From Lingula anatina (lineage: Eukaryota > Animalia > Brachiopoda), in assembly GCA_051362555.1 (NCBI GenBank), contig CM120640.1, forward strand, positions 53,050,788 through 53,114,787: 64,000 nt of DNA. Direction: 5' to 3'. This document shows positions 191 to 11,355 of this stretch, one piece after another (the first letter of the stretch is position 1; each line of letters starts with the position of its first letter). The position numbers were made by a program, and so were the translations under genes. The notes below the pieces were generated by a model. The model was not told the DNA's origin and did no database searches. It saw only the letters and a list, made by a program, of their open reading frames with translations.

Positions 191-3100
191 ATGAGTAGTG
201 AAGAGGCAGAGGCGTATATTCAGGTAATATATTTAATAAAACAAGGTATAGAGATCTCGAGAAAAGTGTAATCTTTGGAGACAAAACAATATGTATATCT
301 ACCCCCTGGTCTTAACTTTTGTTTGCTTATGAAAAACCAAAGGCATGGACAGGGGTGCACAAATACATTCTCCACGACTTTGACAACCAGACAATTATGC
401 TGCAATTTATTTAACTAATATGAGAAATAACATTAATCAGGAGAAAAATGCAATCTTATCATTTGATGCATTCTACTAAACTTCTAACTGCATTCAATAC
501 AAACGAACAGCCATCAGAGAAATAATTTTCAAAACAATGTCAAACAGGGTTTCAGTGCTTGGAGGGATACAGGCTTTCCAATCCATAAATCATTTTCGAA
601 ATTTGAAACTTGTTATGGCTAACATTTAATTTTAACAGTATAAGTTATATCTTTCATCATGACAAATTCCCAACTCTTTACATCTCAATCTTAACAAAGG
701 CCAATGTTTTTTTTTCTCTTTTTAACACATCTTGTTCCTATCTCATTTCAGCAAATCCTGAAAGTGATGGAGGCCAGGGCTGAAAGAACTGATCGCCTGG
801 CAGAACGGAATGTCCGCAGCCCACTAGCCCCAGTACGTCAGCGAAGCCCTACAGGCAAAGAGAGGAAAAACAGCCCCTCAATGAAAGGCAGAAATCGGCC
901 CCTATCCCCTGTCAAACCTGGATCAGGAAGCACATTACGAGGTAGCAGTGGGTCGAGATCTAGATCACCCACTAAGCTGGCAGCATCAAGTACAGCTGCA
1001 GAGGAACCCAAACCAATCAAGAGACTCACATTCAAGTCTCCACATCATGAGGACAAATATCTCCGAGTGGTGGACCTATCCAACCAAGGGCTGACCACTG
1101 TGCAGTCAGCCTACTTTAATGGTGTGTATAATTTTGTGTATAATTTCTTGGTTAAAAGACAATTTCATTTCTTTAACAAGAGATTTTAACAGTGCCTGTT
1201 CACTTAAAAGCAGAATTTGGTGAATAATTAATACAAAAACTGACTACAGGAACACATCTGTTTCAAAGTGAGCTATGTTTCCACTTCAGGTTTTTTTAAT
1301 ATATCAAAAAATATAACTATATACAATTATTATTTTGACATAATAACCTGATAAGAATTTTAACACTTGCATTTTTTAAATATCTGACAGTAAAGGACTC
1401 GGACATTGTGGATGGCGGTACTTAATATTTTATTTCAATTTTCATTTGTAGAATGATTTTATTTCATTTAATTTTGACTGGATTTGTGTGCAGTGTGGAG
1501 TTCTATTTGTGGTGCTTTATTGCAGAATCTTTATTTTACAATATTCAGAATCAGCTGAAACCCCATTTCCTTTGATCAGTCTAATTTTAATCAAAGTGAC
1601 TGTGCACATCATGTTTAAAAATTATGGCTTCTTTCTCCAATACACTCAGTTCTGGTCAATATTTTTGTATAATTGCATTGGAGTGAATTAGACTGTGCTA
1701 TTATGTAACTTTTAAGAATAGAGAAGGTCATGGTGATACCTATTTTGAAGGATAGTTGTTACAGCTCCATGACTGATGTAATGTCATTTTACTTTTATAA
1801 ATCTCATGCATTAATTTTTCTTTTAAAATCCACCTTGTTAATGGAAACCTTTTTATTTTAATAGCCAAAGATGTAGGAGAGATGAACCTCTCAGGAAACT
1901 GCCTCAGAACCATTCCTTTGGACATACGCAAGCTAACCCACTTGATCAGCTTAAACATCAGCAGAAATGGCATCAAATGCTCACATCCCAATGATTATGG
2001 TGGACTTCCTGCAGAATTAGACTCCCTGAAATTTCTAGAAACCTTGATCATTGCTGAGTGTAACCTACAGTACATACCCCCAGCTGTGTGGCGATTAAAA
2101 AAGCTGAAAAAGCTAGATATCAGCAGGAACAAAATCCAAATCCTTGTCCCTGAGATAGGCCATCTGACAAAACTGGAATATCTAAACCTACAGCAAACTG
2201 GGATAACCACCTTGCCCCTTGAGATTGCCTACTGTCAAGAACTGCAACAAATCCTGCTGTATGGAAATGCCATGGAAAGTTTACCAGAGACCTTGAAAGA
2301 GCTACCCTATCTTTGTGTGCTGAAAATGAACCATCGCAGCTTTTGTAGTGTTGTTGATGACTATATGGAGAATCTCATAAGAAAAGGGCAAATTCAATCA
2401 GAACATGTCCCGCAGGTTTTGTTTGAAATGCCATGTCCACTGTCCCTAGACCTCGAGGCCTGCAAGATAAACAATCTTCCAGATGAATGCCCTAACAGTC
2501 TCATTGAGTTCAATATCTCAAAGAATTATTTCCATGATGTTCCCAAAGCTTTGTACAGGATAGAGAACCTTCAGTATCTTGACATGTCAAACAACATGAT
2601 TTCTGACCTGCCTCAAGATATTGGCCAACTCAAGTCAGTAAAAGTTCTGAAAATCAACAGCAATGTCTTTGAGACAGTCCCACCATCCATAGGTGACCTG
2701 AAGCACCTAGAGGTACTAGAAATGGAGAGCAACCGTATTCGCTGTCTGCCATCAGAGATCAGCAATCTGACCACTTTGCATACACTGAAGCTTGCCAAGA
2801 ACAACATCCAAGCCCTGCCAGATTCCATCTGTGAGCTGTACAGGCTAGAAACCCTTGATCTTACAGATAATGGGTTGACATCTCTCCCTTTAAATCTGTA
2901 CAAGCTATCCAGATTAACCTCAGCCCACAGCTATCATCTGTTGTTCAAAACTGGGCTTTGGCTTAACAAGAATCCTCTCGTCACTCCCCCTGAGCATGTC
3001 TGGAAAACTACAGATATACAGAAAATCTATGTTTACCTCCAGCAGCTTAAAATTGCTCGCACTCAGCTCCTGCGCCTTAAACTTATCCTCATGGGGGAGT

Positions 3101-4791
3101 CGCAATCTGGCAAGACAAGCCTGGCCAATGCGATGATCAGTGGAAAGATCAATTTGACTGCAGGGAAGGAAGACAGTACAAGCATAGTTGAGCAGAGGTT
3201 CCTGACCACAGAAAATGGAGTCAACTTTATGGTGTATGATCTGGGTGGTGACCCAGTCTACATGTTCACACACCCCATGTTTCTGGATCCAAAGGCCTTG
3301 ATGATGATTCTTTATGACCACAGCACCTACAACCCTGACTCCTTCCAGTCCACTATTGGTAAGTGGATTGACCTGATCAATGTCCGAACCCCAGGAGCAG
3401 TGGTCAAGATAGTGGGCACTCACACTGATCTGTGTGAAGATGAAAAAGTCAGCCAGGCAAAACTGCAACTCATACAGGAACAAGTTAAGAAGCACCAGGA
3501 AGAACATGAAGAGTCCTTGAACAAAGAGCTGGAGTCCATTACTGACCAGATTGAGAAACAAAAGACCATTGAGACCGACATCAATTTTGAGACTCCTGCG
3601 GCAGAATTTTTGGAAGAACAGCAAAAGAAAATAGAAGGACTGCTTCAGAATACAGTCAAAATGATGCCAATAAGTATTGTGAGCTCAACTGAAGGCACCA
3701 AGGGAGTTGCAGATGTCATGGCAGAAATGGAACGTCTAGCAGTGAATGAAAACCTCTTCCCTCATGCTCATGATATCGTGGATCCAGAGTGGGACGACTT
3801 CAAATCTGCTTTACGTCTTCACAAAACACTTTTCCTAACATGGGATATGGCAGTTGAAATTGGGAAGAGTTTCAAATTTGATGAAGAGGAGGTCCTTCAC
3901 TGCTTGCTCTACCTTCGAGACACTGGAGATGTTGTTTGGTTTAGAGGAAGCTCACAGCTACATGATGTCATCTTCCACAGACCCAAATACTTTGTACAAG
4001 TACTGAGAGGCATCTTCAAGCACAACATGGAAGCATTCCTCAACTATGAGAAGAACAAAGTGTTTAGTAGCAAGGGGAAATATGAACCTGACATTTTTGA
4101 GGAGCATCGAAAAATGTTCCTTCAGCACGGTCAGGTTTCTAGACAAATGATGCAGTGCCTGTGGTTCTACCTAAAGCTGGGTTATGATGAGTTTTATGCC
4201 CTAATGGACTTCATTCCAAGACTGGACATACTCTATGCCATCCCTCAGCCTGACCTGCCCTTGGCCAAACACCACTTCCAACCATTTGCAGCCATTCCTT
4301 GGTATAATAAAGATGCAGAGGATATCTCGACTGTCAAGGGTTACTGGACACCAAAACTTCTACTTGACATAAAGGAGTTGAAGGTGGATTACACATTCCC
4401 ACTTTATTATCCAGTTGGATTATTTGAGAGACTATCTGTTCGCATTCAAGACATCATCACTGAGAGAATAGACTGGAAAAGTCTGACTTATGCAACCACA
4501 GAAGATGAACAACTACTTCTCAGACAGCATGTGTGTAAGAAATCTGGAAACCACACCCTGACCATAGCTGTGAGAGGGAAAAAAGTGGAAGCCATGCTGC
4601 CCATTCTGATCAAGCTACACAATGCCTTTGTTGAGTTTGCCTCTCAGTGGCCAGGGCTTGTGTGGTACATCTCCAAGTCTTATGCTGACAGTGGAAAGAA
4701 GGCAACTTTGGACTACTTTCCAAAGGAGGTGTTTGATACACCTGCTCCTCAAAACATGTCTAGACGGAAGAGCATTGTTTACTTGTACTAA
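191..4791 (+). CDS. MFHAS1: MFHAS1/MASL1-like ROCO protein (LRR-Roc GTPase-COR, no kinase), ~1109 aa; join(191..223,752..1121,1865..4791)
   Basis: Many LxxLxLxxNxL repeats. P-loop GESQSGKTS, G3 YDLGG and G4 VGTHTD, then a COR-like region (LLYLRDTGDVVWF, YYPVGLFERL). GT-AG junctions keep the frame: MSSEEAEAYIQ|QILKVME and YFN-A-KDVGEMNLSGN. The symbol means family resemblance, not proven orthology. Confidence 0.88.
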
Positions 4792-5265
4792 ATGGATTTT
4801 AGGAAAAGTAGTTGGACTAGCTAGGCTGGTAATAACTTGTACTTTGACTAACTGTGATATTGTGCATTTCAGGCAAAATGTACTTGAATCAAGAAACTAA
4901 GAGAAAATCACAAAAGACAATATTTTATAATTTTGTAATGTATATAAATAAATGTGTACATTTTGTTGTCTAGATATTTAACAAAAAGCACTCTAATTTT
5001 ACTTGCATCTTTTATTTTTAATATCTTATATGATCATATATTCATAAATATCATGACCAATTCAGTCAGGTCCTGTGAAAGATCACATTAATATTCAAAT
5101 GTGCCAAAATCTGATCGTAAATTGCATATAGAATGTATTTATGTATACATGTATAAACTCAGCTGTGGAATAAAGAAAGGTTCCATCTTTCCAATTTTAA
5201 AATCAATGACTTCAGTTTAGGCTTGTATATATTAAGCAAATATGGAGTATCATTAGCTCACCTAC

Positions 5266-5418
5266 CTCACACCAAAAGGCAAATATTCTCAGTCCTCTAA
5301 CAGGGAAAAAGAAGAACCATGGCACAGGAATGAGAATTACGAAGACCACAGATACACATAACTTATTCCACCACTCTGGCAACTGGTGGAAATACCACGC
5401 TAATGGAGTGGGAATACA
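5266..5418 (-). CDS. LMF2: LMF2 duplicated exon, copy B ([51 protein letters not shown])
   Basis: 153 nt, phase 0/0, tttatag acceptor and gtaggt donor, open frame. Ungapped homology to copy A. Confidence 0.85.
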
Positions 5419-8400
5419 CTATAAAGTCAAAGTTATTTTTTATACCATGTGTAGACCTTCATCATGCAATATTATAAATCTAAAGCAGCCATGAGGTTAT
5501 GAATGACAAAAAACCCACTTAAAATTGTTTTCCTACATAAGCCACTCTTTGTTGAAGGGGAATCTCTGCAAGCACCCAAGCAGGTTCATCAATTAGATTT
5601 TTTAAACATTGGACAATACTTTGAAATAAGCAGTGAACCTGAAAAGAAAACCCTGAAAAATTTGCACTGCAAACAGAAAAACAAGGCCATGAATATCAAA
5701 CGATCAAAGCAGCACATGAACATTAATCAATTAGCAAATGAATTTTTCATACTGTTAAACACATGTATGAAAAGTCCTGCAGTTTTCTGGGAATAAAACA
5801 TTAAAACGTTCAGAGAAGAACCAGAATCTACATAAATCCTTCAAACTGCAATTTGGTTCATTTGTCAAAATTTGTATGATATAATTTTTGTTCAAAACAC
5901 TGTGATCTCAAAGAGACACACAAGCACAATAATCAACCATAGTTTCTTAAAGTGATACTTTGATTTTTTTGTTTTTTCAAAACTAAATCTGGTTCCTCCC
6001 TGTTCAGTTTTAGCCTATTTTATGCCCCATACCTGATTATAAAAAGCAAATATACGCAGGCCTCTGATTGGTAAAAAGAAAAGCCAGGGTACAGGAATCT
6101 CAATGATGTAAGTCATAGCCACTGACAGTTTCTGGAACCATTCAGGTAGTTGGTGGAAATACCAAGCCATGGGGGTTGGCAGACACTGAAATGGTTAGAT
6201 TTGGCTAGTAACTACAAATTTAAGGCAAAAAGCACTTCAACATTTAGTGACAAGTACACAAAATCGGCTGTTAATTTTTGTGAATTTTTTTATTTATAAA
6301 TGCATTGTTATTTGTAGCTAATTTGAAAAATCAAAAACCTTGTGGTGTGAAATATCTGATTTTGTTATAAGACAATTTGTTTGTACCCTCACACAGTCAT
6401 TACTCATATTGGACATCAAGTTTTTATGTCAGTATGTTTCAGTATTAGCACAAGGCCTTCTTCAGATGAAATTGGGTTGGGTTGCCACCAATGTTACATG
6501 GCAGCCTGCAAGGATGTCCCCCAGGGCCCAATTCCACAGGTATGGTAGTTGGTATCGCAGGCTGCCATGTTTGTTGATGGTGGGTTGTTCAATCTGCTCA
6601 TAAATTGTCTCTATCATACCTTTTCTGAACCAATCTTCCTCTTTGTCAAGGGTCAAGACAAATTGGTTTCAAATGTACAGGGTGAATACTGCACATTCAT
6701 ATGGTTGTGCCACCTGAGCTAGGGTCCCTATACATTCTGGTACATTCTGTTTCTTATAGACTGTTTTGTTTCCCCACAATTAAGTCTTTTCATTCACTGT
6801 CCTTACACCTTACACCATATACAACATTAGACATTTTTTTCTTAAAGCATGCCATTCCGTCTTTCATAGATTGTCACCATGTGATATCGGTGACAAATCA
6901 TTCTCAGTTGACCCGAAGGTCTTGTGATAAGGCTGAAACATACTGATCTCAGTTTCAAAACATTAGATCTACGAGTCAATTACAATTCCTCTTTATCTTA
7001 ATTAAAAACAACTGTATTAATCACAACTTTCATTTAAAATCACCTCTAACATTTCTGATATTTTTTTCATGAAATGAAATTTGTGGGGTACTGAAATCAT
7101 TATTCATTATTTCTAATAAAATTGAGGATCAGTATGCAACTTGGTATGAAACTGCAAAATTAAACAATATATGTAAATATGTGCTTGTTTTCAATTGTGT
7201 GTGTGACAATAATGACAACATTTAAAACAGTTTCAACCTTATTTACTTTATCAAATATACCATTTAAAACTTTTAATACAAACATATACCTAAGTGGGGT
7301 TTTTTTAAATTACAATACCAAATACTGCAAAACAACTAAAGTTAAATACAAAACTTATTTTAAAAATCAAAGTAGACTATTGTCTTTTATATTATATTAA
7401 ATTATATTATATTATATTATATTATATTATATTATATTATATTATATTATATTATATTATATTATATTATATTATAAATCCAATATTAATTTATTATTGA
7501 ATACAATTACCTGACTTTCATAATGCCAATTCAAAGCTGAAAGTTAATAATAAAAATTGTAAATTAAGCAGAAAAGTTAACAAAAACTGGAAATAACTTA
7601 TGTGAGCATTACACTAACAGATGTTTGACCTGAAAAAGTTGTAAATGCTGAATTTTTTGTTCAATAAAATAGACAGATTAGTCTACAATGAATACAAAAT
7701 TTGCTCCATACCAGTTAGTCCCCACCATGTTGGGCATTCACTTGTCAGCTTGACCACTCCTGATGCAAACATCAATCTGAACAGTAACCACTTTAACAAC
7801 CAAAATATGACATGGTCATGGGGGCTCAGAGTTTCATTTTTCCATGGGATTGCTGGAGCTAGCAGGATGGTAAGAAAGCCTGCCTCAAGCAACAAAATAT
7901 CCCTAATAATAATAATAATAATAATATAATATGACTTATGACTATGATAATATTATATAATATGTGACTTATGACTAGAGAAATATCTGTCTGGTGACAC
8001 ATTTAAACAGGCTTTAAAATGTAGTTACTCACTCAAAGGAAGAAACAGCAAAAATTTAAATATCTAATTCAAAAAAATCCAATTTGATTATACTTATACA
8101 TACCACTGAAACCAAAGGAAAGTCTGTCCAACCTGAAAAAATATCTCTGATTTATTTACGAAAGCATGTCAATTTATACTGTAGATTAAAATAAGTTTTA
8201 CGTCATAACACTCAGAAGTATGCCACGGCACTTTTTATTGTACATTAAAATAAGTTTTTATCACAAATTTCTTTATAATATAAATAATGAATATGATGAC
8301 ATATTTCATATAGGCTTATATCTGATTACATGTTACACAGCATATAAATATGCTGTAAAAAGAATTTTGTCAAAACAAAATACATATAAAGCAAAACATG

Positions 8401-9604
8401 CTTTAATTTCCCACAATAAAGTATTTCTTGGTGCAGGTTGTCTGTAGGGATGATGCTTTATATAAACAGAATAATGAATGAATGGACAGTCCTCTTATAC
8501 AAACAGCCTGATAATGAAACAATATGGAAAAACAATATTACAAACTAACTTACCTGAAAAAGCGAAAAATACAAAGCCCAGAGACAGGCAAATGATAACA
8601 TTCCACGCATGTACCCTGATACAAACACAGAGAAGGATAGGCAAATGCCAAGAAGGGCAATAAAATCCATTGAGGACTGAATATCCAAACCAAGCTTTGG
8701 AAGGAGTCGTATTAATGTTGGCTGCTTTTGAAAATCATCAAATGAATTGGGTTCTGAAAAGAAATTATTTTAACTAAAGAATGCATAAAAATCAAAAAAT
8801 GATTTTTAAAAAATCAATCTTTATCAAATATCTTTTCTTAAATTTTCTTTTCAACATTTAAATCTGTTTTAAAAAGGATCAATTAATAATTTTAACTTTA
8901 TTCAAAAAAGTATACAAACCTTTCTGCAGTATATTTCGAACAGGCAAAATTCCATTATCCCCATATAAGCCTATGAAATGACAAAATAATATATATTTAA
9001 GTTCTCTTATATTTTGATTTTCTTTTTCTTTTATTAATTGTTTTTAACATTTCAATTTGTTACTTATAGAGAGATATACAATTTTTCTAAGGTAAATCAG
9101 CAAGTACATTTCACAGAAATTCATTCATTTCATAAACAGTATATGCACTGAGTGAGTAACATTAAATATCATTCATGTATAACTTTTTTAAAAAAAGTAA
9201 CGTGACCTGTGACTATATTTGCAAATTTGGGGGAAGGGGTCATGTAACAATATCCATGAATGCATTTCCCTGAATTTGGTCTCAGAATTTCTATGGGTTA
9301 ATCAATATAAGCTAACTGTTAAACTGACCACTATAATTACAACAGTAGTTCGTGTCATTACGCACGTACGCGACAAATTAATAAAATATTTAATGTCATG
9401 GTTCTCGAAGTAAAAGTGGCAAAATACTAGCAAGTGCATGTACTGCACAACGCAGACCCGCAGTGTCTAGACTTTAGAAAAAGTGGAATCGCACTAAATT
9501 TAATACTTACCGGGTATTTGCACGTAAAGCGACGAAAATGCAAACATATATATAACTGCCATTGATCGCAGGAAGAGATCTCTCGTCCTTCTTAATTCTG
9601 CCAT
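5266..9604 (-). CDS. LMF2: Lipase maturation factor 2, 5' part; exons 9511..9604, 8920..8970, 8554..8753, 8104..8132, 7712..7902, 7511..7536, then 6033..6185 and/or 5266..5418; remaining exons lie outside the window
   Basis: The spliced translation [41 protein letters not shown]...[27 protein letters not shown]...[40 protein letters not shown] matches LMF-family motifs. Junctions are canonical and phase-compatible. Confidence 0.92.
6033..6185 (-). CDS. LMF2: LMF2 duplicated exon, copy A ([51 protein letters not shown])
   Basis: 153 nt, phase 0/0, tttcag acceptor and gtatg donor, open frame. Confidence 0.88.
6480..6850 (-). mobile_element. Degenerate Penelope-like retroelement fragment (GIY-YIG endonuclease region)
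   Basis: Minus strand reads NVVYGVRC...[14 protein letters not shown] and [36 protein letters not shown], resembling the Penelope GIY-YIG C-terminus. Stops and frameshifts are present. Confidence 0.72.
7399..7475. repeat. (ATATT)n pentanucleotide microsatellite
   Basis: Perfect tandem ATATT run; the same motif occurs at ~26799-26847. Confidence 0.95.
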
Positions 9605-10626: not shown

Positions 10627-10865
10627 GGCTGCGTTCACATGAAAAATCTGTTTTCTAAAAATCTATTTGCCGTATCTTGTGATCACGGTCTGTGCCATGA
10701 ATACACCACGGTGTAATTACTGGCAGCACCGAGAATTAATTACAGCTGGAAGTAACTGGCTCGCGCTGTCCGTAATTACGCCGTGTGGTATTCAGGACAC
10801 AGACCGTGATCACAAGATACCGCAAATATGTTTTTAGAAAATAGATTTTTCATGTGAACGCAGCC
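10627..10865. mobile_element. MITE with long TIRs and 3-bp TSD (TAG), PIF/Harbinger-like
   Basis: GGCTGCGTTCACATGAAAAATCT...AGATTTTTCATGTGAACGCAGCC, nearly fully palindromic, flanked by TAG on both sides. Confidence 0.8.
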
Positions 10866-11181
10866 TAGAACTTGCAGTATACCTAAATTTCGCATTACCC
10901 CTAGAACTTGCCTTAGCTTTTGGCCTTACCTATCACCATGCAATAATGTTTTGACATGTGATGATGGAGTGCCAACAAATAGTGTTATTTTTGATGCCAA
11001 GAGAAGGTCACATATTGGATAAGCAGTCTCTTTTCCATGTTTCTCTTATGAAGAAAACGATGATTGCAGTGCACATCGAGGTTAATTTTGAGTAAAGCTG
11101 TCCATTCATTGAAAAAACTTTATATAGCCAACAGTGTGCTTCAAGTTCTGATTATAACTCACTTGTTGTATGTGCAGTTTG

Positions 11182-11355
11182 GGGGGCCTCTCGATAGTCC
11201 GAAGGTTCATTGGTCCAAAGGTTCATTGGTCCGAAAAGTGGTAACATTTTCATCGATTTTTTAATCAAGGGTTCATTGGTCCGAAGGTTCTATAGTGAAC
11301 ATTCGGACCAATGAACCTTCGGACTATTGAACCTTCGGACTATCGCTACGGCCCC
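11182..11355. mobile_element. MITE with 15-bp subterminal repeats (GGTCCGAAGGTTCAT) and 8-bp TSD GCAGTTTG
   Basis: GGGGCC..CGATAGTCCGAAGGTTCA and TGAACCTTCGGACTATCG..GGCCCC inverted ends. GCAGTTTG at 11174-11181 and 11356-11363. Confidence 0.78.

Follow-up and report, generated by a model that had tools for sequence, protein, structure and literature searches.

Clusters of mutually exclusive exons (MXEs) of the Dscam1 type rely on docking sites and a selector, and the exclusion they achieve preserves the reading frame without recourse to NMD. The exon pair described here, in LMF2 of the brachiopod Lingula anatina, resembles them in that its exclusion preserves the frame and cannot depend on NMD, and differs in that no significant docking/selector pairing was found. 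Frame-preserving exclusion without NMD is likewise known from OGDH exons 4a/4b, where the accessible part of the report ascribes it to a distant branch point (PMC7969005), unlike LMF2, in which the AG exclusion zone before the second copy spans only 36 nt. Tandem homologous MXEs in human offer a closer likeness, in that adjacent exons of equal length are used one per transcript, core residues are kept and a transmembrane protein is concerned, and events of this homologous-exon class are often tissue-specific, as far as the accessible portion of the catalogue describes them (PMC9741552). The Lingula pair departs from the human catalogue in two ways, as it has been found in one species only and exchanges Glu for Leu within the membrane, a non-conservative replacement. 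Concerning the protein family, LMF1 is described in the part of PMC11526315 at hand as an ER membrane chaperone whose cysteines are redox-active, and LMF2, in the corresponding part of PMC13683977, as a multi-pass ER protein. Neither name is mentioned in the sections of the splicing literature that were accessible, namely the main text of PMC9741552 and one supplement of PMC8373072. The literature covered, which was partial, contained no account of LMF2 exon 7 splicing or of the RefSeq models X1–X4 discussed below.

In a window of 64,000 nt, the whole stretch of DNA that was analysed, exon 7 of LMF2 is present as a tandem duplicate, and transcripts use either of the copies, A or B, but likely never the two together. 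The outcome would be two membrane proteins of the same length that are predicted to fold alike, with one membrane helix likely differing in its chemistry between them. We assign this reading a probability of about 75%. The either-or exon pair as such is real, under selection and sample-dependent in its use, and was already implicit in RefSeq models.

The LMF2 gene and its duplicated exon 7

The gene is Lingula anatina LMF2. Its product carries the Pfam domains LMF1 (PF06762) and LMF1_C (PF25179), both isoforms, with A or with B, exceed both Pfam cut-offs, and the closest relatives among the matches listed are named LMF2. Transcribed from the reverse strand, the gene begins with coding exons 1–4 (9604-9511, 8970-8920, 8753-8554 and 8132-8104, spanning 8104..9604), which were placed by sequence and splice joints. 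Exon 5 (7712..7902, reverse strand), supported by the Pfam LMF1 domain, a joint and conservation, encodes a helix ending in the invariant Lys176. The 26-nt exon 6 that follows (7511..7536, reverse strand) is the common donor for A and B, as documented by the joints 7536/7712, 6185/7511 and 5418/7511; an upstream exon ending at 7511 had been predicted from the letters of the window, and the read joints confirm it. Exons 1–6 total 591 nt or 197 codons, in agreement with a start of exon 7 at residue 198. Further along the same strand lie intron 6 (6186..7510, 1325 nt), copy 7A (6033..6185), the GT-AG intron between the copies (5419..6032, 614 nt) and copy 7B (5266..5418). The LMF2 exon downstream of B is absent from the 64-kb window. 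Nested in the intron after B, on the forward strand, is a Roco gene (LRR-ROC-COR; 752..5190, 3’ end approximate) with a long open frame at 1801-4791 and joints near 223/752 and 1121/1865; opposite-strand reads and joints were present at this gene in the RNA runs.

Copies A and B are each 153 nt long, in phase 0/0, bounded by an AG acceptor and a GT donor, and open in frame, so that the exon pair stands as originally predicted in position, length, phase and splice sites. Ungapped, they are identical at 102 of 153 nucleotides (67%) and 34 of 51 amino acids (tblastn E ~2e-22 within the window), and each aligns with Pfam LMF1 (PF06762) over profile positions 78-128. Copy A, encoding residues 198-248, keeps Glu226; copy B is a homologous alternative with Leu226 and the additional Cys218 and Cys247, three cysteines against one in A, which agrees with the predicted loss of Glu and gain of cysteines. 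Degenerate codons for residues shared by A and B are identical in only 14 of 31 cases, in keeping with the many synonymous differences that had been noticed. The claim that the flanking introns lack similarity held equally well: the 300-nt flanks of A and B are unrelated by blastn, the best match being 19 nt at non-equivalent positions (E 0.018).

RefSeq holds four automated models of Lingula LMF2, X1–X4 (XP_013397010.1 to XP_013397013.1). Model X1 contains A, X2 contains B, X3 combines A with another swap at residues 409-443, and X4 skips both copies; none of the four members of this cluster contains both copies together. Differences between X1 and X2 are confined to residues 199-248, that is, to exon 7, and in X2 copy B is joined to the next exon in frame. 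The window’s B peptide matches part of XP_013397011.1 (Lingula anatina LMF2 isoform X2) at 100% identity. Isoforms with A, with B and with neither are thus already present in RefSeq, differing from the present account in being bare gene models, and the splicing class to which they belong is well known. Copy A of the window encodes Leu232 where RefSeq X1 has Phe, an allele present in reads, and the window haplotype therefore differs from the RefSeq haplotype; the B peptide is the same in both.

Reads from this species show it to be polymorphic, which is the sole prompt for regarding the second copy as an assembly or haplotype artefact; nothing else was found in favour of that explanation. The copies are only 67% identical, their flanks are unrelated, and both occur in RefSeq models derived from a different haplotype. 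Junction reads to each copy refute an artefact, which we consider exceedingly improbable.

Junction reads and the choice between the copies

RNA was taken from eight of nine same-species runs (X1, X2 and X4–X9; X3 was left out), with 6-30% of each run read. A splice joint was listed only from three reads at two starts, a threshold that could hide up to two A-to-B reads per run. Across the eight runs, exon 6 was joined to A by 38 reads and to B by 11, the latter all from runs X4 and X5. Resolved by run, exon 6 joints to A and B numbered 1/7 in X4, 7/4 in X5, 2/0 in X6, 8/0 in X7, 11/0 in X8, 9/0 in X9 and 0/0 in X1 and X2, the last two having no depth on either copy. Copy A is accordingly the major form overall, and B is minor and sample-dependent, being the major form in run X4 (7 of 8 joints). 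Seventeen listed loose-end reads lead from A directly to the next exon, past B (four in X6, four in X7, three in X8 and six in X9). An A-to-B joint was listed in none of the eight runs, at the three-read threshold and at low depth. Run X9, which belongs to study P3, has reads on B but no listed B joint.

No loose end from B to the next exon was listed in the eight runs, and the B-next joint stands in the RefSeq X2 model alone. In run X5, A’s downstream loose end is likewise unlisted despite seven upstream joints, so that B’s blank downstream joint lies within sampling. The junction pattern expected of alternative exons was in this way recovered in large part: exon 6 joins A or B, A joins the next exon and no A-B joint is listed; a read from B into the next exon is the part that did not appear among those listed. 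Two alternative exon forms of LMF2, as the original prediction proposed, are nevertheless borne out by joints to either copy and by RefSeq models X1 and X2, which differ only here. The copies are of equal length, diverged and intact, each is joined to exon 6 and none are seen together at this depth, as would be expected of mutually exclusive homologous exons.

The same blank could alternatively mean that full-length mRNAs do not carry B in place of A, B being instead a last exon or one whose processing is incomplete, perhaps stalled by the convergent Roco gene, or an exon often included together with A. Such a reading gains from the proximity of the Roco 3’ end, about 100 nt from B’s donor, with an AATAAA at 5169 and 3’ UTR reads reaching ~5140, and from five reads of run X4 located in intron sequence immediately before B (5446-5490). 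It loses to the in-frame junction of B with the next exon in RefSeq X2, to the equally unlisted downstream end of A in run X5, to a canonical B donor and to the 11 reads that run from exon 6 directly to B, skipping A. We consider it very unlikely that B is terminal, incompletely processed or often accompanied by A.

Usage of exons A and B differed between studies, with an A:B ratio of 10:11 in P2 and 28:0 in P3 (Fisher p 1.2e-5, mates not being independent); within P2, the comparison of runs X4 and X5 gave p 0.059. Reads of study P3 come from a population more divergent from the window and from a different library type than those of P2, and the tissues of the runs are coded, so the difference between the studies may be genetic or technical. 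Tissue control of B use is a reading that we infer from these between-sample differences. As RefSeq X4 skips both copies, control of the exon 7 choice is not tight.

Several established ways of keeping two exons apart can be set against the locus. Inclusion of A and B together is stop-free, and NMD can hence not enforce exclusion, as had been argued beforehand from the exon length. Steric blocking does not apply because the A-B intron measures 614 nt. Each donor is an ordinary GT site that lacks the U12 consensus, which does not suit an incompatibility of U2 and U12 splice sites, and the short AG exclusion zone before B argues against a distant branch point. None of the four, steric, NMD, minor-spliceosome or distant-branch-point exclusion, fits, which makes LMF2 A/B a frame-preserving two-exon case to which four standard exclusion mechanisms do not apply.

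RNA pairing was searched for by an ungapped helix scan of six region pairs, with shuffles and real tiles as controls. The best pairing joins a candidate intron site at 6337-6359 (reverse strand) to a stretch that covers the 3’ end of B together with its donor (5258-5280) at -26.7 kcal/mol, compared with -5.7 for A’s donor region, with which the site does not pair. It was matched by 29 of 2000 shuffles (p ~0.015 before correction for six comparisons) and by 5 of 88 real tiles, and the other five region pairs did no better than chance, with 11 to 65 of 100 shuffles scoring as well. The site is consequently a lead only, and the docking/selector complementarity that had been suggested for the introns did not reach significance. 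With four mechanisms not fitting and pairing not significant, a regulated choice of splice site is suggested, in which A would be the default; B would be chosen in some tissues or conditions. As to what enforces the exclusion, trans-acting factors are slightly favoured, RNA pairing is a possibility that we hold tentatively, and leaky splicing with loss of aberrant products appears doubtful.

Divergence and age of the copies

Synonymous divergence between A and B is saturated (pS 0.75), whereas pN amounts to 0.21 and reached pS in 0 of 5000 bootstraps, values that average over both lineages since the duplication. This signature of purifying selection upholds the view of an old duplication kept by selection with which the pair was originally described. 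Read variants within A and B point the same way, four of the five listed being synonymous, including the sole variant in B, with 18 further variant rows beyond those listed.

The two copies have not evolved evenly. In all three exon trees the branch of B (0.35-0.63) is longer than that of A (0.11-0.23), and B replaces the family-common residues Thr222, Glu226 and Gln248. Together with the RefSeq model that skips both copies and the 28 reads of study P3 among which no B joint occurs, this would suit a B that is real but largely a non-adaptive leftover, an old duplicate drifting under relaxed constraint and leakily included, with a product that is like A’s or is discarded. Against such drift, B has retained its length, its two splice sites and the core residues Cys198, Trp205, Pro211, Pro230, Pro236 and Arg241 even though synonymous sites are saturated; it carries the family consensus at Ile199, Leu203, Phe223 and Val224, where A does not; and it supplies most exon 6 joints in run X4. 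A non-adaptive leftover is, in our judgement, unlikely, and we retain the selected, mutually exclusive pair as the preferred reading.

When the duplication took place is addressed by trees of 51 columns. A and B have in common residues that are rare elsewhere, such as Gly239, found in 0 of 40 other sequences, and they are sisters in the best trees of two of the three analyses, at weak support (51 and 72/71); in the third tree, the support of 99/95 belongs to the hexacoral branch and not to A+B. Alternatives that place B with the hexacorals (p-AU 0.23) or with the exons of two other animal contigs, L003 and L009 (p-AU 0.38), were not rejected.

A second species with the A/B pair, for which a search in related animals had been proposed, did not emerge. 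Isoform sets differing at exon 7 were found in none of seven other lophotrochozoans, two exon-7 segments within one protein in none of 357 proteins, and two exon-7 copies within 3 kb in none of 80 metagenome loci; the best 120 of 614 matches contained no further named brachiopod, which makes this a weak test. Separately, an Oculina isoform X2 that is 51 residues shorter was considered as an exon skip and rejected, the difference being an N-terminal truncation. The same Roco gene lies nested after exon 7 in other animal contigs as well (L003/L004, L008/L009 and, weakly, L007). In L003 and L009 one exon is seen, which lacks Glu226 and Thr222, sits on a long branch and has no A-type copy upstream.

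Glu226 and the predicted fold

Where homologous exons are mutually exclusive, they usually mark the protein segment under tuning by the animal. In the predicted structure of the A form (RefSeq X1, pLDDT 89.9), exon 7 contributes a short, predicted luminal helix (202-207), then a membrane helix (212-234) that is interrupted by proline and has Glu226 where it breaks, and about the first half of the helix spanning 238-257; a fragment model of the B form (X2, pLDDT 95.4) has the same helices. Nine of the 17 differences between A and B fall within residues 214-226, raising the mean hydropathy of this segment from 1.64 in A to 2.59 in B, and the polar Thr222 and Glu226 are both removed in B. Among 138 close relatives, a set with redundancy, 129 carry Glu226, and the other nine, eight hexacoral records and one more, have Leu. 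Of 144 distant representatives, 138 could be matched, with Glu in 123, Gln in 11, Leu in three and Asp in one. The Glu that is usual for the LMF family is thus missing from Lingula B and likewise from hexacoral LMF2, in which Leu226 is the only form seen; a hidden Glu-type isoform in hexacorals found no support in six clusters. That hexacorals manage with Leu226 as the one form seen argues that a B-type protein can function; it equally argues that Glu226 is dispensable, and its exchange may have little effect.

The fold predicted for LMF2 resembles that of the vitamin K-dependent gamma-glutamyl carboxylase (GGCX). Searched with the whole LMF2 model, Foldseek placed GGCX at ranks 1-15 (E 1.6e-3 to 1.5e-2), and a wide VIA search placed it first (Z 11.7, rmsd 7.2, 281 residues aligned; next hit at Z 7.9). 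For residues 151-285 alone, GGCX again took Foldseek ranks 1-14 (TM 0.61-0.64, E 0.19-0.69) and was aligned by VIA over GGCX residues 193-320 (Z 6.7-7.3, rmsd ~3.4); for this fragment the four-helix fold of NACHO/TMEM35A outscores GGCX (Z 10.0-10.2), and GGCX was not within the top 50 of the wide VIA search. A search of solved structures by LMF2 sequence gave no relevant match, and an Atlas feature search returned only DUF3556 at 0.75-0.78, below the reliable range, and was set aside. The TM5-cap-TM8 core of GGCX is thus the best fold for the whole LMF2 model, the difference being an identity of only 9-16% without a sequence-level match. These moderate scores suggest that LMF2 shares a GGCX-like membrane core. 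In the literature, as far as partial coverage goes, no link between LMF proteins and GGCX was found; structure databases may, however, already make the resemblance apparent.

Lys176, invariant across 90 of 90 alignment rows, would likely fall on the catalytic Lys218 of GGCX if the first helix is ungapped; this match is derived from an offset of +42 between the starts of the aligned ranges and not from a residue-level alignment. In GGCX, Lys218 is needed for catalysis, and vitamin K is surrounded by cap residues 220-246, by TM6 (254-259) and by TM7, according to the accessible part of 10.1101/2025.02.09.637231. The elements encoded by exon 7 would match the end of the GGCX cap, TM6 and the start of TM7, which line the vitamin K pocket, and the swapped exon would form part of the predicted pocket wall. 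On this model, B likely presents a more hydrophobic wall and has altered or weakened activity. A difference in chemistry between the A and B isoforms, as the original prediction had it, remains likely on the same structural grounds.

LMF2 has little established biochemistry, and its two exon swaps point to specific segments of the protein, one of them removing a near-invariant membrane Glu. The value of the exon 7 pair would be that it directs attention to a likely pocket in a protein family of which little is understood, and the predicted GGCX-like core with its invariant Lys176 offers a concrete, testable idea of LMF function, such as quinone binding or client maturation. Taken to its full extent, the idea would make LMF2 a membrane enzyme of the GGCX fold, with Lys176 acting on a quinone or lipid cofactor, which lophotrochozoans tune by splicing at two places: a swap of the pocket helix between 7A, Glu-bearing and active, and the Glu-less, more hydrophobic 7B, and an older pair in a luminal linker common to brachiopods, nemerteans and molluscs. 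On this view, the Glu-less, fast-evolving exons beside Roco in L003 and L009 would count as B-like copies, and the switch would be older than the brachiopods. As a whole, this scheme is speculative and rather unlikely.

As for the second swap, residues 409-443 differ between RefSeq isoforms of near-equal length in Aplysia, Physella, Biomphalaria, Ylistrum, Lineus and Tubulanus, that is, in six of seven other lophotrochozoans with two isoforms, Dreissena being the exception. In all seven species with the swap, Lingula among them, Arg is the last residue of one form but not of the other. This protein-level pattern suggests an older exon pair, and the Arg forms of scallop and snail group together with a support of 96/88.

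A Roco gene nested in LMF2 and candidate B-like exons

The intron that follows LMF2 exon 7 houses an LRR-ROC-COR (Roco) gene in antisense orientation (window 752-5190, + strand), and the donor of B, the exon 7 copy with Leu226 (5266-5418, - strand), lies ~100 nt from the end of this gene's 3' UTR. Three further animals display the same layout, with the Roco gene on the strand opposite LMF2 at contig loci L003 (3811-5420) and L004 (2325-3934) of one animal, L008 (606-1557) and L009 (3553-6152) of a second, and, as a weak match (E 9e-4), L007 (4327-4554) of the third. Directly before the nested gene, L003 (2936-3088) and L009 (3001-3153) harbor a fast-evolving exon 7 that lacks both Glu226 and Thr222, position 226 being Met or Gln. 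These Glu-less exons are possible B-like copies.

Residue 226 in hexacorals and the predicted fold

In each of the hexacoral LMF2 proteins P0017, P0019, P0023, P0029, P0038, P0054 and P0086, Leu takes the place of Glu226 and the Pro pattern that follows is lost; this change is likely convergent with Lingula B. The predicted fold of the whole Lingula LMF2 protein (P0009) matches gamma-glutamyl carboxylase. In this modeled match, Lys176, invariant in LMF2 and encoded by exon 7712-7902 (- strand), would correspond to the catalytic Lys218 of the carboxylase, as placed by range offset only.

Intronic reads and repeats around LMF2

Sense-strand RNA reads from the same species map to the intron just upstream of B (5446-5490, run X4) and just upstream of A, the Glu226 copy at 6033-6185 on the - strand (6282-6509, run X5), which suggests that both introns are slowly removed or retained. 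An inverted repeat at 5497-5521 and 7291-7315 would loop out exon A, with a duplex energy of -19.9 kcal/mol that falls inside the chance range of the duplex scan. Intron 6, upstream of A, contains a 32-nt inverted repeat (6429-6460 and 6915-6946; 88% complementary, arms 454 nt apart), whose arms may be the termini of what remains of a small transposon. Upstream of LMF2, short palindromic or internally repeated elements at ~10640-10880 and 11190-11350 look, by eye, like non-autonomous transposons.

An additional isoform difference in LMF2

Residues 409-443 of LMF2, which are encoded outside the window, differ by another swap of equal length between P0009 and a second isoform, P0008. This swap is common to Lingula, three snails, one scallop and two nemerteans, and in 7/7 species a form ending in Arg is paired with one without the terminal Arg. 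The swap seems to reflect a pair of exons that is older and has been conserved.
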